Assembly: GCA_963663165.1 (NCBI GenBank)
Contig: OY760175.1
Location: forward strand, 1,696,001-1,760,000
Direction: 5' to 3'
Origin: an uncultured Desulfospira sp.
Lineage (GTDB): Bacteria; Desulfobacterota; Desulfobacteria; Desulfobacterales; Desulfobacteraceae
Length of the DNA: 64,000 nt
In this document: positions 53,571 through 64,000 of the stretch, piece by piece
How the letters are laid out: each line of letters begins with the position of its first letter
Position numbering within the stretch: position 1 is the stretch's first letter
Made by a program: the position numbers and the translations under genes
Notes under the pieces: model-generated
Database searches by the model: none
Told to the model about the DNA's origin: nothing
What the model saw: the letters and a program-made list of their open reading frames with translations, nothing else

Positions 53571-54734
53571 CTAATTTGTCTCCCAGAAAGGCGACATCTG
53601 CCTTAACCGTTCAATAATGGGCACCATGGCCTCAACAATGTCATCCATTTCCTGGCGGGTATTGTAATGGGACAGGGAAAACCGGATGGTCCCGTGAAGG
53701 GATTTCTGGGGGACCTTCATGGCCATGAGCACATGGGAGGGATCAAGAGAGCCCGAGGTGCAGGCCGATCCGGAAGAGGCGCAGATGCCTTTCTGATCCA
53801 GGAGCATGAGAATGGACTCCCCCTCTACGGCGTCAAAGCCGATGGACAGGGTATTGGGCAGCCGGTGGTCCATATCCCCGTTCACGGAACAGGCAGGAAT
53901 GGTGTCAAGCAGCCGGTTCTGGAGACAATCCCTTAACTCCTTAACCCGGGTGTTCATTTCATCTAAATTCTCTTTGGCCAGTTGGGCGGCCTTGCCAAGG
54001 CCGATAATGGAAACCGTGTTTTCCGTTCCGCCCCGCCGGCCCTTTTCCTGGTGGCCGCCAATAAGAAATGGCGTGAACTTGAGGCCGTTTTTGATATACA
54101 GCACACCAATGCCCTTGGGGGCATGAATTTTATGCCCGGACAAGGAGAGCATGTCCACACCGGTTTTCTTCACGTCAATGGGCACCTTGCCCGTGGCCTG
54201 GACCGCGTCGGTATGAAATAAAATCCCTTTTTGAGCCGCTTCTTTAGCAATCTCGTCAATGGGGAAAATCACGCCTGTTTCGTTGTTGGCCCACATGACG
54301 GATACGATGGCGGTATTCTCAGACATGCTTGAATAGAGCAGGTCCAGGTCCAGCCGCCCCCTGCTGTCCACGGGCACCAGGGTAATCTCATACCCCCGGT
54401 TTCTTTTTAGGTGTTTACACAGGTTAAGAATGGCCGGATGCTCAACCGCTGTGGTAATGATATGCTTTTTTTCGGGGAAAGCGGCAAGGGCCGTGTTAAT
54501 GGCCGCATTATCACTCTCCGTGCCGCAGCTGGTAAACACGATCTCATCCGGGTCCGCATTGATCAGGCCGGCCACATGTTCTCTGGCCTGTTTAACCTTT
54601 TGGGCCACCTGGTCCCCGAAGGTATACATGGAAGACGGGTTCCCGTACATCTCGCCGAAATAAGGAAGCATTGTCTCAATGACCTCATCAGCGACTTTGG
54701 TGGTGGCGTTGTTATCCGTGTAAATAATAGTCAT
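53571..54734 (-). CDS. nifS: Cysteine desulfurase NifS
   Basis: DNNATT, TSCGTESDN, NNETG, HTDAVQ, SGHK (PLP Lys), SSGSACTSGS. Confidence 0.95.
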   Translation of the reverse strand: MTIIYTDNNATTKVADEVIETMLPYFGEMYGNPSSMYTFGDQVAQKVKQAREHVAGLINADPDEIVFTSCGTESDNAAINTALAAFPEKKHIITTAVEHPAILNLCKHLKRNRGYEITLVPVDSRGRLDLDLLYSSMSENTAIVSVMWANNETGVIFPIDEIAKEAAQKGILFHTDAVQATGKVPIDVKKTGVDMLSLSGHKIHAPKGIGVLYIKNGLKFTPFLIGGHQEKGRRGGTENTVSIIGLGKAAQLAKENLDEMNTRVKELRDCLQNRLLDTIPACSVNGDMDHRLPNTLSIGFDAVEGESILMLLDQKGICASSGSACTSGSLDPSHVLMAMKVPQKSLHGTIRFSLSHYNTRQEMDDIVEAMVPIIERLRQMSPFWETN

Positions 54735-54750
54735 GGGTCACCTTCTCGGG

Positions 54751-55323
54751 TTATGCCAGGCCTTGAGCAGCCCGGGTGGATTCAATGATCTGTTCGATCC
54801 GGTCAATGCATTTGCCGCAGCCGCCGCCAGCCTTAAGATAGTTGGTGACATCTTCGGTGGTCTTAAGGTCGTTGTTTTTGACGGCATCCTTAATTTCAAG
54901 ATCGGTCACATCAAAACATTCACAGACCAGGTCTCCTGGTTTCTCAAGGATCTGAACGCCCCGGTAATTGGCAATGGCCTTTTTCAAGGCGGCATGGCCC
55001 ATGACCGAGCAGTGCATTTTGGCTTTGGGAAGCCCCCCTAAATAATCGGCAATATCGTCGTTGGTCACCTTGATAGCCTCATCCAGGGTCATGCCCTTGA
55101 TGATTTCCGTCAGGGCCGATGAGGACGCCACGGCACTGGCGCAGCCAAATGTCATGAAAGAGGCATTGATGATTCTTTCATTTTCATTCACCTTTAAATA
55201 TAAGGTCAGGGCATCCCCGCAATTGAGGGACCCGGTCTCTCCCACCGCATTTGCATCTCTCATGACCCCTACGTTCCTGGGGTTCAAAAAATGGTCTTTG
55301 ACCTGATCAGAGTAATTCCACAT
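54751..55323 (-). CDS. nifU: Fe-S scaffold NifU (IscU-like plus BFD-like domains, no C-terminal Nfu domain)
   Basis: HFLNPRNVG, CGD, FGCASA, LPKAKMHCS, VCECF...GGCGKC. Ends at 190 aa. Confidence 0.9.
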   Translation of the reverse strand: MWNYSDQVKDHFLNPRNVGVMRDANAVGETGSLNCGDALTLYLKVNENERIINASFMTFGCASAVASSSALTEIIKGMTLDEAIKVTNDDIADYLGGLPKAKMHCSVMGHAALKKAIANYRGVQILEKPGDLVCECFDVTDLEIKDAVKNNDLKTTEDVTNYLKAGGGCGKCIDRIEQIIESTRAAQGLA

Positions 55324-55945: not shown

Positions 55946-57382
55946 ATGAGCAGCAACCAGACATTAATGCGCCGGGAGCGTGACACCTTAGGAGAACTCG
56001 ATGTTCCGGCCACGGCCCTTTACGGCATCCATACCATGCGGGCCATCCACAATTTCCCCTTTTCAACGGCCCGCCTTCCCGAACCGTTCATAAAGGCCAT
56101 GGGACAGGTAAAACAGGCCTGTGCCCTGACGAACCAGACCCTTGGCTATCTTGATCCAAATCCGGGCGAGGCCGTTATCACCGCCTGCAAAGAGCTTGAA
56201 AAAGGCGATCTGTCAGACCACATTCTGGTGGACCCCTTCCAGGGCGGGGCCGGCACCTCCACCAACATGAACGTTAACGAGGTCATTGCCAACCGGGCCG
56301 AACAACTCCTGGGCGGGAATCTAGGCGAATACCGGATGGTTCACCCCATTCATCACGTCAATATGCACCAGTCCACCAATGATGTGTATCCCACGGCTCT
56401 GAAGGTAGCAGCGCTTAAGCTGCTGGTGACCCTGGAAAACGAGATAGAAAAGCTGCAACAGGCCCTCCAGGAAAAGGAGGGGGAATTTCGCAGCATTGTA
56501 AAGGTGGCCAGAACCGAGCTTGTGGACGCCGTTCCCATGACCCTGGGCATGACCTTTGGGGCCTTTGCCGATGCCGCGGCCCGTGACCGCTGGCGTATTT
56601 TCAAGAGCCGGGAACGGATCAAACGGGTCAATCTTGGGGGAACCGCCATTGGTACGGGGCTGGGCGCGCCCAGGGACTATGTGCTGAAGGTGACTGAAAC
56701 CCTGCGGAATATCACCGCTTTACCGGTATCCCGTGCTGAAAATCTCATCGACGCCACCCAGAATATGGACCCTTTGGTAGAAGTTTCGGGCATGCTCAAG
56801 GCCTATGCGGCCAATCTGCTCAAACTGTCCTCGGATTTAAGGCTGCTGTCCAGCGGGCCTGAAACCGGCATCGGGGAGATCATTCTTGACCCCTTGCAGG
56901 CGGGATCTTCCATTATGGCCGGCAAGATCAATCCGGTCATGCCCGAAGCCGTGACCCAGGTGGCGATCAAGGTGATGGGCAACGACCAGACCATCGCCTT
57001 TGCCGCCGGCATGGGCCAGCTTGAACTCAATCACCTCCTGCCGCTGTTAACCCACACTTTTTTAGAATCACTGATGCTGCTGATCAGCGCCACAAAAGGG
57101 CTTTCCACACACTGTATCCCTAAAATCCAAGCCAACCCAAAACAATGTCTGGCCCATTTAGAACGAAGCCATGCGCTGGCCACGGTCCTGGTCCCGGCAC
57201 TGGGATATGCCCGGGTGGAGGAGATCGTCAACGCCGCAAGGGCATCGGGCAGATCCATAAAAGAGGAGATCATCCATCAGCATCTGGCATCACGGGAAAT
57301 TGTCGATACGCTGCTGTCGCCCAAACGGCTGTGTAAACTCGGGTTTACGCCAAATGAATTTGACGGGGTGAACCGGCCATGA
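55946..57382 (+). CDS. aspA: Aspartate ammonia-lyase
   Basis: RRERDTLGE, YGIHT-RA, QGGAGTSTNMN, HVNMHQSTND, GSSIMAGKINPV fumarase/aspartase signature. Confidence 0.9.
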   Translation: MSSNQTLMRRERDTLGELDVPATALYGIHTMRAIHNFPFSTARLPEPFIKAMGQVKQACALTNQTLGYLDPNPGEAVITACKELEKGDLSDHILVDPFQGGAGTSTNMNVNEVIANRAEQLLGGNLGEYRMVHPIHHVNMHQSTNDVYPTALKVAALKLLVTLENEIEKLQQALQEKEGEFRSIVKVARTELVDAVPMTLGMTFGAFADAAARDRWRIFKSRERIKRVNLGGTAIGTGLGAPRDYVLKVTETLRNITALPVSRAENLIDATQNMDPLVEVSGMLKAYAANLLKLSSDLRLLSSGPETGIGEIILDPLQAGSSIMAGKINPVMPEAVTQVAIKVMGNDQTIAFAAGMGQLELNHLLPLLTHTFLESLMLLISATKGLSTHCIPKIQANPKQCLAHLERSHALATVLVPALGYARVEEIVNAARASGRSIKEEIIHQHLASREIVDTLLSPKRLCKLGFTPNEFDGVNRP

Positions 57383-57424: not shown

Positions 57425-58636
57425 ATGCTTATGTCCAGTAAGGCCCCCCGGGGTGTACGCCTTGTTATTGCACTGGTGGGCCGGCGCAATGCCGGAAAAT
57501 CATCCCTTGTCAACGCCATTGCCGGGCAGGAGATTGCCATCGTTTCCGATCACCCGGGCACGACCACGGACCCGGTGGCCAAGCCCTACGAACTGCTGCC
57601 CTTAGGGCCTGTCACCTTTTATGATACGGCAGGCCTGGATGACGAAGGGGAACTTGGAGACCTGCGGGTCAGGGCCACCCGGAAAATCCTCTGGCGGTCG
57701 GATGTGGCCGTGGTGGTCATTTCAGAGCAAGGCATCACCCATTATGAAAAAAAGATCGTTGATGAAATCCGTGATCTGGACATTCCCTTCCTCATGGTCT
57801 TTAACAAGAGCGATCTGGCCAGGCCTTCAGACCCGGATCTTGCCTTTTGCAGGGAAAACAGCCTGCCTTATCTGATCATCAGTGCAAAAGACAATGTGAA
57901 TATTACGGCAGTAAAAGAGGCAATTATCGACATTGCCCCGCCGGAAATAAAGCGGGAGCCTTTGCTGGCCGGCGACCTCATCAATGAGGGCGACTGGGTG
58001 GTCTGTGTGGTTCCCATTGATCTGGCAGCCCCCAAAGGCAGGCTCATCCTGCCCCAGGTTCAGGTTCTTCGTGAAATCCTGGACTGTGATGCCTTGGGGC
58101 TCATGGTCAAGGAAAAAGAAATTGATGCGGCCCTTTCCGGCCTGCATCGAAAACCGGCCCTGGTGATTGCCGATTCCCAGGTGGTGATGAGCGTGGCCGG
58201 GGACGTGCCCGAAGATATCCCCTTAACCACTTTTTCCATTCTGTTTGCCCGGTACAAGGGGGACATCACAAAGCTTACGGCCGGTGCGGCCGCCATAGAC
58301 GATCTTAAGGACGGGGACCGGGTCCTTATTGCCGAGGCCTGTTCCCACCATCCAGTGGCCGACGACATCGGCCGGGTCAAGATTCCCCGCTGGATCACCC
58401 AGTACACGGGCAGGGATTTGAACTTTGATGTCTATTCCGGCCACGATTTTCCTGAACATCTGGAAAAGTACCGGCTGGCCGTTCATTGCGGGGGATGCAT
58501 GATCAACCGCGTTGAAATGCTGCGCAGAATCAAGGAGTGCCGCCGCCGAGGGGTGGCCATTACCAACTTTGGCCTGGCCATCTCAAAGGTCCAGGGGGTG
58601 CTGGACAGGGTCATAAAGCCCTTTGGAGGGATATAA
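57425..58636 (+). CDS. hydF: [FeFe]-hydrogenase H-cluster maturation GTPase HydF
   Basis: GRRNAGKSS, GTTTDPV, DTAG, NKSD, PIDLAAPKGRLILPQVQ, and EACSHH...HCGGC Fe-S motif. Confidence 0.95.
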   Translation: MLMSSKAPRGVRLVIALVGRRNAGKSSLVNAIAGQEIAIVSDHPGTTTDPVAKPYELLPLGPVTFYDTAGLDDEGELGDLRVRATRKILWRSDVAVVVISEQGITHYEKKIVDEIRDLDIPFLMVFNKSDLARPSDPDLAFCRENSLPYLIISAKDNVNITAVKEAIIDIAPPEIKREPLLAGDLINEGDWVVCVVPIDLAAPKGRLILPQVQVLREILDCDALGLMVKEKEIDAALSGLHRKPALVIADSQVVMSVAGDVPEDIPLTTFSILFARYKGDITKLTAGAAAIDDLKDGDRVLIAEACSHHPVADDIGRVKIPRWITQYTGRDLNFDVYSGHDFPEHLEKYRLAVHCGGCMINRVEMLRRIKECRRRGVAITNFGLAISKVQGVLDRVIKPFGGI

Positions 58637-60309
58637 TGCACCTTCAGGAAAACGGCATTACCTTCGCAGCCCCCCCCTTGAACCGGCTGCCGTCGGTTCA
58701 CAGGAAAATTTTCTGTCCGGGAAACACCTTGATTGTCTGCGTGCAGCTGGCAGACGGGCGGGTGGAAGATGCCTGGAGTACCGGCCGGATGATGCGCAGC
58801 ATGAACCTTTTGCTGCAGGTTATTTCAGATGACCCCGGCCGGCCCTGTTTTGTCCGGCGCGCCCATTGCCTGTGCAACGACGGACATGCCCTGGCTGCGG
58901 TTCGCGCATTAGAGGACCTGGCCGGGATAGCGCCGCCCCGCAGCGCGCTTCTGGTGCGCAGCCTGGTTCAGGCCCTTCGATGTATCCAGGAGCACCTGCT
59001 TCACTTTTATCAATTTCACCTGTCCAACTGGGTCTGTTTAGGGCCGGCCCTGGGGGCTGATCCCGGTAAAACCGCCCGGCTGGCAGATCCATTGAACCGG
59101 GGACCTGATTATTTCAGGCAGGTCCAGGAGCGGTTGCGGCCCCTGGCTGAAAATAAAGGGATCAATGGATTTAATGACCGTTTCTGTGATCATCCGGATT
59201 ACCGTGGAGCCGACGAATTCCATCTGCTGGTTCACAGCCACAGCCTGGAATCCCTTCAAATACAAAGTCTTCTGAACAAGGCCCTGGGGCTGCTTGGCTG
59301 TAAAAACGGCCGGCATCCGGCCTATCAGACAGGCGGGCTGTCCCCGGACATGAACCTTGGACAGGCCGTGCTGCAGCAGCTGCACGGCCTGGTTCGCCAC
59401 TGCCGGGATTTTATTAACACCTCTTTTCTTACCGATCTTGAACAGATGGCCAGGGCCTACCCCCATTGGAAGGACCTGGCCATTGGCAGCACGTTTCTTT
59501 GCCTGGGCGATTTTGCCCGACCCCATGACAGGGGCCTGCTGTTTCCCAACGGCATTACCCGGACGGCAGGCAAAAATCAAATCGTTGATCCGGCCCGGCC
59601 CGATCGGGTCACGGAAGAACACACCCCTAAATGGAAGGACCTGGACACAGAACGGTACCGGCTCAACTTCGGCAGACACGGCCCGGTATTTTTCTGGAAC
59701 AAAGGAAATTTGCCTTGGATTTTTGCTCCCCGCCACGGCAAAGATGCCTGTGAGGCGGGATCCCTTGCCCGGGTGATGGGGGCCTTTACCCAGGGCCGGC
59801 AGGAAGTGTGTAAAGCCGTAAATAACAGCCTGAAGGCCTCCGGCCTTTTGCCGGGGGATATGAACTGTGCACTGGGGAGGCTGTTGTCCCGGGGCATTGA
59901 ATCTTCGGTTCTTTCAAAGGCCGCTTTGGACTGGCTGGATGAACTCAAGACTGAACCGGTCGGCAAACGGGCATTGATGAACCAGAACTTTCGTCTGCCC
60001 CGTACCGGTGTGGGAACCGGAAAGGTGGAAGTGCCAAGGGGATCTTTGATCCATACCATCCAAATGGACAAACACAGAATCATCCGCCATGACTGCCTTA
60101 TCCCGTCCATGTGGAATTTTTCCGTCCGGGATTCAAAGGGCCGGCGCGGCCCCCTGGAACAGGCGCTGCTGGGGACACCGGTGAGAAACCCTGATCATCC
60201 CCTGGAACTTTTACGCATTGTCCACGCCTTTGACCCCTGCAACCCCTGCCATGTGGTGGTCCAGGATGCGGACACCGGAAGGGTCACCCTGTCAGGCCCC
60301 GGGACGTGA
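58636..60309 (+). CDS. Divergent [NiFe]-hydrogenase large-subunit-like protein
   Basis: HALAAVRALED, HLLHFYQFH, APRH, CEAGSLAR, EVPRGSLIH, PSMWNFSVRD-KG-RGPLEQALLGTP, ELLRIVHAFDPCNPC. ATG overlaps the hydF TAA (TAATG). Confidence 0.85.
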   Translation: MHLQENGITFAAPPLNRLPSVHRKIFCPGNTLIVCVQLADGRVEDAWSTGRMMRSMNLLLQVISDDPGRPCFVRRAHCLCNDGHALAAVRALEDLAGIAPPRSALLVRSLVQALRCIQEHLLHFYQFHLSNWVCLGPALGADPGKTARLADPLNRGPDYFRQVQERLRPLAENKGINGFNDRFCDHPDYRGADEFHLLVHSHSLESLQIQSLLNKALGLLGCKNGRHPAYQTGGLSPDMNLGQAVLQQLHGLVRHCRDFINTSFLTDLEQMARAYPHWKDLAIGSTFLCLGDFARPHDRGLLFPNGITRTAGKNQIVDPARPDRVTEEHTPKWKDLDTERYRLNFGRHGPVFFWNKGNLPWIFAPRHGKDACEAGSLARVMGAFTQGRQEVCKAVNNSLKASGLLPGDMNCALGRLLSRGIESSVLSKAALDWLDELKTEPVGKRALMNQNFRLPRTGVGTGKVEVPRGSLIHTIQMDKHRIIRHDCLIPSMWNFSVRDSKGRRGPLEQALLGTPVRNPDHPLELLRIVHAFDPCNPCHVVVQDADTGRVTLSGPGT

Positions 60310-60340: not shown

Positions 60341-61351
60341 ATGAACCGGAACACCATATTAGATGCACTTAAAGACCAAACCGGACAAACCGGCCTGTTT
60401 GCGGCAGCCGATCGGGTGCGCAAAGAAAACCTTGGCGACACCGCCCAGCTGCGCGGCGTGGTCCATTTCTCAAATTACTGCCGGTGTAATGACCTTTATT
60501 GCGGCCTGCTTAAAAACAACACCCAATGCCGGCGGTTTCGCATGAGTGAGGATAAGATTGTCGACACGGCCCTGGCCATTGCCCGGGCCGGGTTAAAAAC
60601 CGTGGTGCTTCAGTCGGGTGAGGACCTTTACTACACCCGGCCCATGATCAGTTCTGTGATTGAACGAATCCTGGATAACGCCGATGTGGCCGTTACCTTA
60701 AGCTTGGGAATGCGGTCCAGAGACGACTTTAAGGCCTTTCGGGACGCCGGGGCCCAGCGGTATCTCATGAAGCACGAAACCATGAACCCCGTTCTCTATT
60801 CCAGGATGCGCCCGGGCCAGCAGCTTGCGGACCGGCTTAAAACCATCCATGAGTTGCGGGAACTCGGATACCAGGTGGGGGTGGGCAATATCGTGGGCCT
60901 GCCCGGCCAGACCCTTTCAGATCTGTGCGAGGACATCCTTTTTTTCCAGGATTTCCAGCCGGACATGATTAATATCGGCCCGTTTATTCCCCATGCCCAG
61001 ACCGTGCTTAAGGATGAACCGGCCGGGGACATGGACCTGATGCTGCGGGTGTTTGCCTTAACCCGGATGGTGACCGGCAACACCCATATTGCTGCGGCCA
61101 ATACCGTGGCCACCCTGGACCCGGAACAGGGGCAGTACCGGGCCTTGACTCAGGGCGGCGCCAATGTAATGATGCCCAATTGCAACCCGTTTCAAAAAAG
61201 CCAAAAGGATAAAATTGAATACGAGTTTCAGATAACCACCCATAAACGCTACGTTTCCGTTAACGAGGCCCGAAGCGTCCTTGCCCGGGCCAACCGGACC
61301 GTGGACAAGGGAAAGGGACACTCCCTTAAAATACGAGGAGAACAGGTTTGA
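60341..61351 (+). CDS. HydE-like radical SAM protein with altered cluster motif
   Basis: RGVVHFSNYCRCNDLYCGL, TVVLQSGED, VTLSLG, RYLMKHET, VGLPGQT, IGPFIPH, GANVMMPN. ATG 60341. Confidence 0.85.
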   Translation: MNRNTILDALKDQTGQTGLFAAADRVRKENLGDTAQLRGVVHFSNYCRCNDLYCGLLKNNTQCRRFRMSEDKIVDTALAIARAGLKTVVLQSGEDLYYTRPMISSVIERILDNADVAVTLSLGMRSRDDFKAFRDAGAQRYLMKHETMNPVLYSRMRPGQQLADRLKTIHELRELGYQVGVGNIVGLPGQTLSDLCEDILFFQDFQPDMINIGPFIPHAQTVLKDEPAGDMDLMLRVFALTRMVTGNTHIAAANTVATLDPEQGQYRALTQGGANVMMPNCNPFQKSQKDKIEYEFQITTHKRYVSVNEARSVLARANRTVDKGKGHSLKIRGEQV

Positions 61352-62103
61352 TTAAGGTAGCCATATACGGTAAGGGGGGCATTGGCAAATCCACCGTGGC
61401 CTCATGCATATCCGCCGCTTTAGGGATACAGGGAACCCATGTCATGCAGATCGGCTGCGACCCCAAAACCGATTCCACCATCAATCTTCTGGGGGGAACC
61501 CCGCCGCCGCCCATCCTGCAGTATCTTCAGGAAAACGGGCGGCCCGACACCCTGGACGCCATTGCCAGACGGGGCTTCGGCAATACAATCTGCATGGAGG
61601 TAGGCGGCCCGACCCCGGGTGTGGGCTGTTTTGGCCGGGGCATGCTCACCGCTTTTGAGCTTTTGGACGACATGGGCGCCTATGATGTTTACCAGCCGGA
61701 CGTGGTGCTTTACGACATTCTGGCCGATGTGGTGTGCGGCGGCATTGCCGTGCCCATGCGCGAAGGATTTGCCGATAAGGTCTGTATTGTCACCTCAGGT
61801 GAAAAAATGGCCCTGCTGGCCGCCCAGAACATTATCCTGGCCCTGCGCAATTTTGCAGACCGCAACTATGCTGAACTCGGCGGGCTGATCCTCAACTGCC
61901 GGGATATGGAAAACGAAGCGGAACGGGTAAAGGCCTTTGCCCAGAAAATGGAAACCGCCATTTTAGGGGTGATTCCCCGGGACAGGGCCATCCACACATT
62001 TGAAGAAGAAGGCAAGACCATTGTTGAGGCAGACCGTACCCTGCCCACCTCGGCCCGGTTTTTTGAACTGGCCAAAACCATTGCCGGGTTTGGGGACCTT
62101 TAA
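61348..62103 (+). CDS. NifH-like (nitrogenase iron protein family) ATPase/reductase
   Basis: YGKGGIGKST, GCDPKTDST, GGPTPGVGCFGRG, DVVCGG. TTG start overlaps the upstream TGA. Confidence 0.9.
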   Translation: MIKVAIYGKGGIGKSTVASCISAALGIQGTHVMQIGCDPKTDSTINLLGGTPPPPILQYLQENGRPDTLDAIARRGFGNTICMEVGGPTPGVGCFGRGMLTAFELLDDMGAYDVYQPDVVLYDILADVVCGGIAVPMREGFADKVCIVTSGEKMALLAAQNIILALRNFADRNYAELGGLILNCRDMENEAERVKAFAQKMETAILGVIPRDRAIHTFEEEGKTIVEADRTLPTSARFFELAKTIAGFGDL

Positions 62104-62148
62104 AACATTGCTCAAGGATTGAACAAACACGACCGTAAGGATATTTGT

Positions 62149-63447
62149 ATGGACCTGGATCATGCCCGCATCAGGGTTGAAAACCTGCGTGAGAAATCGG
62201 ATTTTCCCTTTGCCCCCCTGGAAGGGGTGGGCCCTAACCTGGCCGGCTGGGGCGTCATCGAGACCTGCCTGCTGCTGCCGGAGTCGGTGGCGGTCATGGT
62301 CGGGCCTTCGGCCTGCCTGCGCCATTCAGCCTTTATGGCCCATGCCAGGGGATTTACAGAACGGTTTTATATGCTGTGCGTGCCTGAACTTGACATGGCC
62401 ATGGGCAATCACCTGTCCGTGGTGGAAAAGGGCATCAGGGACATTGCAAAAACGCGGCAGGAAAAGGTAATTTTCCTGATTGTGGGGTGCCCGGATTATA
62501 TTCTGGGTACGGATCTTACCGGGGTCATCCGGCGCCTGGAAGCCGCCACCGGGAAAAAGATCATCCCCGGGGCCATGGCACCCATTACCATCGGGCTTAA
62601 ATCATCCCCCTTTGCCTCGGCCTATACCTCGTTTTTCGAGTTCCTTAAGGACACACCCCGGGGTCAAGATGACCGGGTCCTCAACCTTTTGGGCACATTT
62701 ATGCCCCTGTCGGATTCCGGGGAGCTTTATCAGGTTCTGGCCGCCGCCGGCATGGACACGGTACTTCAAATCCCCCTGTGCCGTGATTTAACACAATTCT
62801 CGCGCATGGCCCATGGCCGGGCCTCAGTGGTCCTGCACCCGCTGGCCAACGGCCTTTCCGGCAAAATGGAACAAGAGATGGGCATTCCGGCCTGTTTTGC
62901 GCCAACGTCCTATGGATTTTCCATTATCCGGGAACAGTATGAGAAAATCAGTGAGGCTGTGGGACAGCCCCTTGATACCGGGCCTTATGAACAGGCGGCC
63001 CGGCAGGCGGCGGCCCCCTTGCTGGAGATGCTTTACGGCAAATCGGCCGCCGTGGGATGCAGTATCAACGGCAGCCCCTTTGAGCTTTCCCTGTTTCTGG
63101 TCCAAAGCGGTGTCAATGTGGAAGCCGTTTTTGCCCGGGGCGCCATCAAGCCCTATGAATGGGACCTGATCCAGCAATTGCGTAAGGTAAAACCGGACAT
63201 CCATGTGTACAACGCATCCCATCCGGCCCTGTGCGGACACACCCAACCTTTTGACACCGTGGAACTGGCCTATGGCGTTGATGCGGGTATTTTTTGTGCC
63301 CAGGCCGCCAATGTGCCCCTGTCCCGCTACCAGGAACAAACATACGGGTTTGAAGCCGCTGTCTGGATGCTTGAACAAAGCTGCCGGGCCCTGACCCATC
63401 CGGTGGACAACTATGAGTGGATATACAAACACAACTTTCTCATATGA
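62149..63447 (+). CDS. Nitrogenase component-1 type oxidoreductase subunit (NifD/NifE-like fold)
   Basis: MVGPSACLRH, ELDMAMG, GCPDYILGTD, LNLLG. Follows the NifH-like gene. ATG 62149 after AAGGA. Confidence 0.8.
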   Translation: MDLDHARIRVENLREKSDFPFAPLEGVGPNLAGWGVIETCLLLPESVAVMVGPSACLRHSAFMAHARGFTERFYMLCVPELDMAMGNHLSVVEKGIRDIAKTRQEKVIFLIVGCPDYILGTDLTGVIRRLEAATGKKIIPGAMAPITIGLKSSPFASAYTSFFEFLKDTPRGQDDRVLNLLGTFMPLSDSGELYQVLAAAGMDTVLQIPLCRDLTQFSRMAHGRASVVLHPLANGLSGKMEQEMGIPACFAPTSYGFSIIREQYEKISEAVGQPLDTGPYEQAARQAAAPLLEMLYGKSAAVGCSINGSPFELSLFLVQSGVNVEAVFARGAIKPYEWDLIQQLRKVKPDIHVYNASHPALCGHTQPFDTVELAYGVDAGIFCAQAANVPLSRYQEQTYGFEAAVWMLEQSCRALTHPVDNYEWIYKHNFLI

Positions 63448-63457
63448 GGGATCACCC

Positions 63458-64000
63458 ATGAAAGCATATCATCATCTCCTTCCCCTGGCCACGGGCTATT
63501 TCGGGGTCAGTTCCGCACTTTACAACTTTGGCGGCCTGGTGGTCATCTATGGACCTGCAGGCGGGGCCTGGCACATCAATATCGAGGATGAACCGCGCTG
63601 GTACCGGGGGCCGGCCACAGTGGTGGGGGCGGGCCTGCTGGAAATGGACGTGATCCTGGGCAATGATAACAAATTTATCACCCATATCGTTGAGACCGCC
63701 AAGGGGTTGAATTCCCCTTTTGTGGCCCTGTCAGGCACCCCCATCTCAGAGATTATCGGTACCGATCTTAAGGGATTTGTGCGGAGTGTTGAAAGCCGTA
63801 CCGGCATCCCGGTGTTCATGGTGCCCACGGCCGGTTCCGAACCCTATCCCGAGGGGGCGTCCAAGGCGCTTCTGGCCCTTTCCGACAAAATCATGGATCC
63901 GGATGCCCCTAAGCAGCCCAAAGGGGTTAACATCCTCGGGGCCATTCATCTTTCCACGGGCCGGCAGGCCCATATCGAACCGTTGCTTAACGCCATCCGG
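63458..64000 (+). CDS. Second nitrogenase component-1 type subunit (partial, runs off the window; absent from the ORF track)
   Basis: Open frame from ATG 63458: MKAYHHLLPLATGYFGVSSALYNFGGLVVIYGPAGG...DEPRWY...LLEMDVILG...GTPISEIIGTDLKG...GVNILG. Confidence 0.8.
   Translation, partial: MKAYHHLLPLATGYFGVSSALYNFGGLVVIYGPAGGAWHINIEDEPRWYRGPATVVGAGLLEMDVILGNDNKFITHIVETAKGLNSPFVALSGTPISEIIGTDLKGFVRSVESRTGIPVFMVPTAGSEPYPEGASKALLALSDKIMDPDAPKQPKGVNILGAIHLSTGRQAHIEPLLNAIR

Follow-up and report, generated by a model that had tools for sequence, protein, structure and literature searches.

To our knowledge, HydG has been treated as the sole source of the CO and CN ligands in the [FeFe]-hydrogenase H-cluster. 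[Fe(II)(Cys)(CO)2(CN)] is the product of HydG in the canonical route. HydE reduces this complex and joins it into a dimer, and the bridge is added by HydF; AspA, a known hyd-operon partner, can supply ammonium for the dithiomethylamine bridge (PMC11736057; this paper and the others cited were accessible in part, and statements on them concern those parts). In [NiFe] maturation, HypCDEF make Fe(CN)2CO, and turning CO2 into CO would require about -530 mV as well as ATP; HoxV and HupK are Ni-free Fe(CN)2CO scaffolds that are paralogous to the large subunit (PMC12134894). Exceptions to the HydG route have been noted, as acetogenic Clostridium with hydE and hydF but no clear hydG were left unexplained (PMC9431212) and an alternative maturation pathway was inferred for archaea (PMC11216029). 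Here, we analysed nflHDK, a set of nitrogenase-like (Nfl) genes at the end of a 64,000-nucleotide stretch ('the window') from an uncultured Desulfospira sp. (contig OY760175.1, positions 1,696,001 to 1,760,000). With the neighbouring maturase genes they form a module that probably provides the [2Fe] subcluster of the H-cluster by a route without HydG. This assignment draws on gene content, linkage, motif changes and co-occurrence, and the chemistry proposed below is what these features suggest.

The genes of the operon are as follows, with their presence, scored by tblastn, in a set of 33 loci composed of the window's own locus and 32 related loci.

55946..57382, + strand: aspA, aspartate ammonia-lyase (NF008909, 605 bits for a cut-off of 510; 15/33 loci)
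57425..58636, + strand: hydF, H-cluster scaffold GTPase (TIGR03918, 548 bits for a cut-off of 326; GTPase, CxH and HCGGC motifs intact; 16/33 loci)
58636..60309, + strand: gene for a [NiFe]-hydrogenase large-subunit-like (LSU-like) protein (PF00374; 24/33 loci)
60341..61351, + strand: hydE*, a divergent hydE (TIGR03956, 265 bits for a cut-off of 255; 32/33 loci)
61348..62103, + strand: nflH, Fe-protein-like ATP-dependent reductase, with a TTG start (PF00142, E 1e-74; 33/33 loci)
62149..63447, + strand: nflD, nitrogenase component-1 fold (alignment to the host NifD and fold prediction)
63458..64000, + strand: 5' part of nflK; the whole gene codes for 399 aa and ends at 64657, 657 nt beyond the window (30/33 loci)

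The operon order is thus aspA–hydF–LSU-like–hydE*–nflHDK, with intergenic gaps of -4 to 45 nt. The start of nflH overlaps the end of hydE* by 4 nt, and a convergent gene lies downstream of nflK. By this layout, nflHDK is co-transcribable with the upstream aspA, hydF, LSU-like and hydE* genes. A sequence-only reading of the window had overlooked hydF and hydE upstream and described the Nfl proteins as a group IV-like reductase of unknown substrate. That description undersold the locus, the context of which points to H-cluster assembly, and the same reading was right that the substrate may be a cofactor precursor. Across the 33 loci, hydA occurs in six and hydG in none (tblastn). One or more of the hypC, hypD, hypE and hypF genes are present in 20 loci, including 18 of the 25 loci of at least 12 kb. 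In 'Candidatus Thermodesulfobacterium syntrophicum' (L034), the components form a single run, hydA-hydB-TM1266-hypE-hypC-aspA-hydF-hydE-nflHDK-hypF-hypD. The module loci share hydF, hydE and aspA with the canonical HydG/HydE/HydF system, as well as TM1266 and hydA in relatives, and the HydF and HydA motifs are intact. They differ from it in that hydG is absent or a relic, in an altered HydE, and in the added nflHDK, LSU-like and hyp genes.

The host genome is closed (one contig, 96.7% complete), and the hydF, hydE* and aspA genes of the operon are its only copies. It also codes for two group A [FeFe]-hydrogenase large subunits that score over the cut-off, each with all three H-cluster motifs, for HypFCDE at another site and for a glycine-cleavage H protein. 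No hydG was found in this genome with the HydG hidden Markov model (TIGR03955) or by tblastn with the HydG of a relative. The possibility of an overlooked copy was rejected, as both searches match hydE* only (36.8 bits; 23% identity).

We determined the co-occurrence of the module with the hyd genes. Among the 31 genomes behind the locus set, 28 have hydF and two have a hydG over the cut-off. Adding the genome G413, hydA is present in 30 of 32 genomes, and the two without it also lack hydF. Because many of the locus-set genomes are incomplete metagenome-assembled genomes, we used two evenly drawn control samples with a completeness of at least 90%, one of the phylum (n=401) and one of the order around G413 (n=251), both of which share genomes with the locus set. 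In the phylum sample, 57 genomes have hydF and six have the module; all six are hydF-positive, and the module is found in 0/344 hydF-negative genomes. In the order sample, hydF occurs in 115 genomes and the module in 15, again all hydF-positive, with 0/136 in the hydF-negative genomes. Within the hydF-positive genomes, hydG is present in 0/6 with the module vs 49/51 without it in the phylum sample (Fisher p 7.7e-7), and in 5/15 vs 95/100 in the order sample (Fisher p 9.7e-8), although these p-values overstate the effect, since related genomes do not count as independent and both samples share members with the locus set. The module genomes belong to four families in the phylum sample and to seven genera in the order sample, with within-genus contrasts. 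One of the five hydG-positive module genomes of the order sample, G496, has only a 326-bit HydG paralogue, a type that hydF-negative genomes carry as well.

Individual genomes illustrate this near-exclusion. G323 harbours a TM1266-hydG-aspA-hydE-hydF-hydA operon, and in its closed congener G413 this operon lacks hydG and hydE; G413 carries the module elsewhere, including the sole hydE of its genome. Short hydG relics in G014 and G007 have an in-frame internal deletion that joins the N-terminus to the C-terminal tail, and conserved motifs are lost from the resident hydE of G011, which falls on a long branch. Conversely, two genomes that keep hydG have a damaged module: the hypD of G647 is a C-terminal fragment only, and the nflH of G503 is frameshifted, at a homopolymer where the shift may be a sequencing error. 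The conserved hydrogenase-maturase context and the near-exclusion with hydG are the reasons for which we assign the module to [FeFe] H-cluster assembly.

Two further observations concern HydG and HydF in the order sample. Genomes of the genus g73 in the order sample (e.g. G226, G277, G346, G484 and G575) encode a full-length HydG paralogue of 316–339 bits, barely above the TIGR03955 cut-off, and this type of paralogue is present also in hydF-less genomes. In the genus g288, many genomes encode an additional, divergent HydF (346–367 bits; frame of ~505 aa) away from the hyd operon (e.g. G547:C1:1448772-1449926).

The partner proteins of NflHDK are modified in specific ways. HydE* has CxxxDxxC instead of the radical S-adenosylmethionine (SAM) motif CxxxCxxC in 30/30 readable module copies, with three further copies alike, and an additional Cys one or two residues past the first motif Cys in 29/30. 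Its C-terminal pocket is also changed (YEFQ vs YxLY/YxIY). The canonical motif is kept in 8/8 resident HydE rows and in 32/32 readable copies of the related gut loci described below. In a quick tree, the HydE* copies form one clade, with a support of 100 in the SH-like approximate likelihood ratio test (SH-aLRT).

The LSU-like protein was compared with its homologues (n=22). All 22 retain the N-terminal bridging Cys and the PRG Arg, and the C-terminal Cys residues are kept in 21/22 and 20/22. Lost, in contrast, are the first Ni Cys, with a Cys in 1/22, the Glu of RIEGH, kept in 3/22, and the terminal His, kept in 1/22. No [NiFe] small subunit is encoded beside the LSU-like gene in the 33 loci. 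Thus, the protein does not have the set of two CxxC motifs, RIEGH Glu, terminal His and cognate small subunit that marks a [NiFe] large subunit, and its residue pattern indicates that it is probably non-catalytic. By analogy with HoxV/HupK, it is a candidate Fe(CN)2CO carrier. The module resembles the HypCDEF plus HoxV/HupK system in its intact hypC/D/E/F genes in or near the cluster and in a large-subunit paralogue that has kept the Fe-side Cys and Arg without the catalytic or processing residues. It differs in being linked with [FeFe] maturases and not with a [NiFe] operon and in having no small subunit, and the likeness to HoxV/HupK is one of motif pattern.

The homologues have also gained two new conserved Cys (20/22 and 19/22). 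Together with the strong divergence of HydE*, these residues would suit a module that builds another CO/CN metal cofactor, for instance in the LSU-like protein as a novel enzyme, with hydG lost for other reasons; module and hydG could then coexist. We consider this unlikely, as the LSU-like gene is absent from complete operons (L029, L030, L034 and the gut loci), the module is never found without hydF in the two samples, hydA accompanies it in nearly all genomes, and both hydG and the resident hydE have been lost where the module is present.

We next consider the Nfl proteins themselves. NflH keeps the P-loop and both cluster cysteines (GKGGIGKS, GVGCFGRG and DVVCGG), as the sequence-only reading had stated, and it scores below the NifH, CfbC, BchL and BchX cut-offs. 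NflH of the mesophile subclade carries GCFGRG and an altered second motif (CGGIA or the like) in place of the GCAGRG and CGGFA of NifH and of the thermophile copies, so that residues next to both cluster cysteines are swapped. Aligned with the host NifD, NflD has Leu31 (in NLAGWG) at P-cluster position 1, and Cys56 and Cys114 at positions 2 and 3. The corresponding ligand columns of NflK hold Thr12, Gly36 and Pro95, with neither Cys nor Asp. The 181 codons of nflK in the window contain no Cys, as noted before, and the only two Cys of the full-length protein, Cys193 and Cys289, are outside the ligand columns. The full alignment, which had been proposed as a check, therefore gives 2+0 of the 3+3 P-cluster cysteines, and a P-cluster cannot form in NflDK. 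The FeMo cofactor positions (Cys275/His442) are not retained either in the alignment to the host NifD/K/E/N.

This pattern is conserved. We aligned 84 close K and 79 close D homologues, excluding P0116, P0121, P0200 and P0201. Gly36 and Pro95 are present in 81/81 covering K rows; no D row has Cys31, and Cys56 and Cys114 are found in 74/74 and 76/76 covering rows. Distant K homologues have a Cys at position 36 in 30/33 and an Asp beside position 1 in 33/33. The loss of ligand cysteines in D and K is a clade trait and not chance. The earlier label of 'Cys-depleted catalytic subunits' is appropriate for the ligand columns, but not for NflD as a whole, which has ten Cys, several of them conserved outside these columns (C211 in 74/79, C304 in 72/79 and C383 in 78/79). 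From conservation, His59 of NflD and His39 of NflK are candidate interface ligands; NflK also has a conserved DEPRW motif.

The structural models of NflD and NflK have the component-1 fold, with a predicted local distance difference test score of 87–88, and share 12–19% identity with solved structures (Foldseek, template modelling (TM) scores of 0.6–0.75). A search of the ESM Atlas returned the general component-1 fold only. For Nif, Cfb and Bch, both proteins fall well short of all NCBIfam cut-offs. The module thus has in common with CfbCD, DPOR/COR (the dark-operative protochlorophyllide and chlorophyllide oxidoreductases), Mar (methylthio-alkane reductase), Isr and Nif/NifEN an ATP-driven Fe protein and the component-1 fold. 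It is distinguished from them by its low identity, its two of six interface cysteines, the absence of NifB and its hydrogenase-maturation context. The module is not one for N2 fixation, as the sequence-only reading had already concluded: it lacks the 3+3 P-cluster cysteines, the FeMo cofactor ligands and linked nifB/EN genes of Nif/Vnf/Anf, and the host has a separate, true nifHDKENB cluster.

For sulfur acquisition, a reductase cleaving C–S bonds of organosulfur compounds, like Mar or Isr, has precedent in the family, and methylthio-alkane reductase is the best sequence match of NflD among solved structures (E 3.5e-11). However, this match is weak (46 bits; 18–19% identity by structure), P- and L-cluster ligands are absent, and so is a sulfur-uptake context. 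The module lacks the P-cluster Cys set and the linked marB/nifB expected for Mar (group IV-C; criteria from PMC13753814 and PMC13474568), there being no nifB or marB in the 33 loci or in 80 gut loci. Set beside Isr (group IV-F, isrBHDK with the radical SAM protein IsrB), the module has as its adjacent radical SAM protein HydE, which is not NifB-like. An organosulfur substrate, suggested by the sequence-only reading, is thus very unlikely, the conserved neighbours being hydrogenase maturases. Cleavage of the C–S bond of an Fe-bound cysteine within a maturation route is possible, and we include it in the H-cluster hypothesis.

Tetrapyrrole reduction as by DPOR/COR, CfbCD or the proposed group VI would fit the two-Cys pattern of D, which is that of CfbD, the match of the K model to BchB (TM score ~0.75) and the DPOR-like set of three Cys plus Asp in gut relatives. 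The two-Cys pattern is thus shared with CfbCD (group IV-B), but CfbCD is built on a single two-Cys D homodimer, and the module has a K partner in 30/33 loci. DPOR/COR (group V) have three Cys plus Asp or Cys, as against two Cys in NflD and the invariant Gly in NflK. All Bch and Cfb cut-offs are missed by far (31 bits vs 420 for BchN; 23.5 vs 268 and 268 vs 402 for TIGR03282 and NF033200), and tetrapyrrole genes are not among the recurrent neighbours. The host's group-VI-like protein, an H–D fusion, is encoded at a separate locus, and in the tree the module D/K branch apart from it. A tetrapyrrole substrate can therefore hardly be entertained. The tree references were the host's own Nif and group-VI-like proteins (an inferred label) and one group-IV-like pair, and deep branches are unresolved. 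That second Nfl system of the host (L004:8312-11966; G000:C1 ~2.838–2.842 Mb) consists of a NifH fused to a three-Cys D, followed by a one-Cys K, with a radical SAM gene nearby.

A wider scan with 27 distant K homologues as queries yielded 572 metagenome matches. We kept the best 80 of these 572 matches, many of them near-identical; they are gut and rumen loci. Their usual order is TM1266 hydF hydE nflH1 D1 K1 nflH2 D2 K2 hypF hypC hypD hypE. Scored per locus, hydG is present in 0/80 of them. Among the 44 loci of at least 10 kb within these best 80 matches, 35 contain hypF, 32 hypD, 27 hydE and 25 hydF. Many gut-type D2 and K2 are single fused proteins of ~770–1000 aa (P0204–P0252 and others). 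The gut D/K proteins, with three Cys plus Asp as in DPOR, group with those of the window at SH-aLRT 100. A gut-type operon with hydA, hydA-TM1266-hydE-hydF-2x nflHDK-hypFCDE, occurs in two Desulfovibrionaceae genomes, G496 and G617, for which hydG was scored genome-wide; G617 has none, and G496 has only the paralogue mentioned above.

These relatives bring the module close to the 'red' NifHEN-like clades reported by Dos Santos et al. (2012) in Coprococcus, Dorea, Desulfitobacterium and Methanocorpusculum, for which one sentence notes a link to hydrogenase maturation proteins in the Firmicutes relatives and a possible role in metallocluster assembly (PMC3464626). The window's NflD shares with that clade Cys at alpha88 and alpha154 only, and groups with gut D1/D2. 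NflK differs in having neither the beta95 Cys (Gly36 in its place) nor the Asp, although it still groups with gut K1/K2 at SH-aLRT 100. The window's clade also has one trio instead of two, plus HydE* and the LSU-like gene. The accessible main text of PMC3464626 does not mention the absence of hydG, Hyp genes or a pathway. Similarly, HydE and the H-cluster are not mentioned in the accessible part of a 2026 review of Nfl systems (PMC13474568), nor are hydrogenases in that of PMC13753814. We found no description of a replacement of HydG by Nfl and Hyp proteins in the full-text literature searched, outside which most subscription journals lie.

Several observations weigh against a HydG-independent maturation role. 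Six genomes (G021, G022, G503, G524, G557 and G647) have the module as well as a full hydG, and both systems are intact in at least G021, G022 and G557. Neither hydG nor the module is present in seven hydF-positive genomes, all multi-contig (G080, G347, G541, G595, G607, G665 and G668). The window's cluster itself is without hyp genes, as are 13 of the 33 loci. In addition, genuine [NiFe]-hydrogenases and HypA are encoded in all five module genomes that were tested, which gives Hyp proteins another client; for this reason, we rejected the hyp genes as stand-alone proof of an [FeFe] role. In favour of that role, the hypD of the cluster is an extra copy in three of five genomes tested. The two-Cys interface of NflDK may hold no cluster at all. 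Finally, a family member in Treponema saccharophilum adjoins an iron-chelate ABC transporter, with no hyd gene within 15 kb, so that the role need not extend to all members of the family. As a separate observation, the locus L051 (G080:C37) has hydA-aspA-hydF, and no hydE, hydG or component-1 gene was found in its genome (99% complete, 50 contigs), which would mean a pathway in decay, a gap in the assembly or a further route.

The Treponema locus, and metal-chelate ABC importers next to nflHDK in some gut loci, could mean that Nfl reductively activates an imported or oxidatively damaged Fe–CO/CN complex, for salvage or repair, without forming a synthon de novo. Coexistence with hydG would fit such an auxiliary role. 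However, the importer is not among the recurrent neighbours of the 33 Desulfobacterota loci, HypF, HypE and HypD are a co-clustered de novo cyanide route, and repair alone cannot account for hydG loss in closed genomes. We therefore regard salvage or repair as improbable.

The HydG-independent route that we favour would comprise five steps. First, HypF and HypE would provide cyanide, and HypC and HypD would assemble Fe(CN)2CO, by established chemistry; many relatives have these genes within the cluster, and the host has them at another site. Second, the LSU-like protein could carry Fe(CN)2CO through its kept Cys and Arg, as its motifs and the analogy with HoxV/HupK suggest; it appears to be dispensable, since thermophile loci lack it. 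Third, NflH would hydrolyse ATP and deliver low-potential electrons to NflDK, the interface cluster of which probably has open or His-held sites given that only two protein cysteines are available. Fourth, HydE* would accept the synthon and form the Fe(I)2(SH)2(CO)4(CN)2 dimer; as its SAM-cluster motif is altered, it possibly depends on Nfl for the reduction of Fe(II) to Fe(I). Fifth, HydF, with ammonium derived from AspA and the glycine-cleavage H protein, would add the bridge and load HydA, as established for the canonical route.

If Hyp proteins replace HydG, a ligand ratio of 1 CO:2 CN must become 2 CO:1 CN. A reductase of low potential that is driven by ATP and whose cluster is under-ligated matches this need. 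We tentatively propose, at slightly less than an even chance, that the Nfl step makes this shift, through conversion of CO2 to CO and/or reductive release of one cyanide. Alternative Nfl steps are the reduction of Fe(II) to Fe(I) or the cleavage of the Fe-bound cysteine. As the gut versions keep a canonical HydE, the task of Nfl common to all versions should be upstream of HydE. Whether the whole scheme holds is evenly balanced in our view: a second H-cluster route in the sulfate reducers and in the two-trio gut/rumen variant, with Hyp-made Fe(CN)2CO and Nfl as an ATP-driven organometallic reductase (CO from CO2, or cyanide removal) that also replaces the reducing role of the remodelled HydE* in this clade.

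Other genes flank the operon. A divergent nifU/nifS-type pair for Fe–S assembly is located just upstream of aspA (53571-55323, - strand); it recurs only in the closest relative (L005), and so it probably does not belong to the module. Downstream of the window, a few kb away, lies a tandem of very large RHS/YD-repeat genes, two of them of 2765 aa and 1992 aa, plus a third (L001:16448 onward; L002:1214-20000).

Altogether, the version found in sulfate reducers, with a ligand-stripped K, a remodelled HydE and a hydrogenase-derived scaffold, is best read as one in which Nfl is the reductase core of a HydG-independent maturation module. Genomes with [FeFe]-hydrogenases but no hydG are a noted puzzle, to which this module is a concrete candidate answer. 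If this is true, organometallic cofactor assembly for a hydrogenase would be a new class of reaction for the nitrogenase superfamily, and [NiFe] and [FeFe] maturation, long seen as unrelated, would be interchangeable at the level of Fe–CO/CN. The route would then also be relevant for H2 production in the gut and rumen, and it would offer a tyrosine-independent maturation kit for hydrogenase biotechnology.

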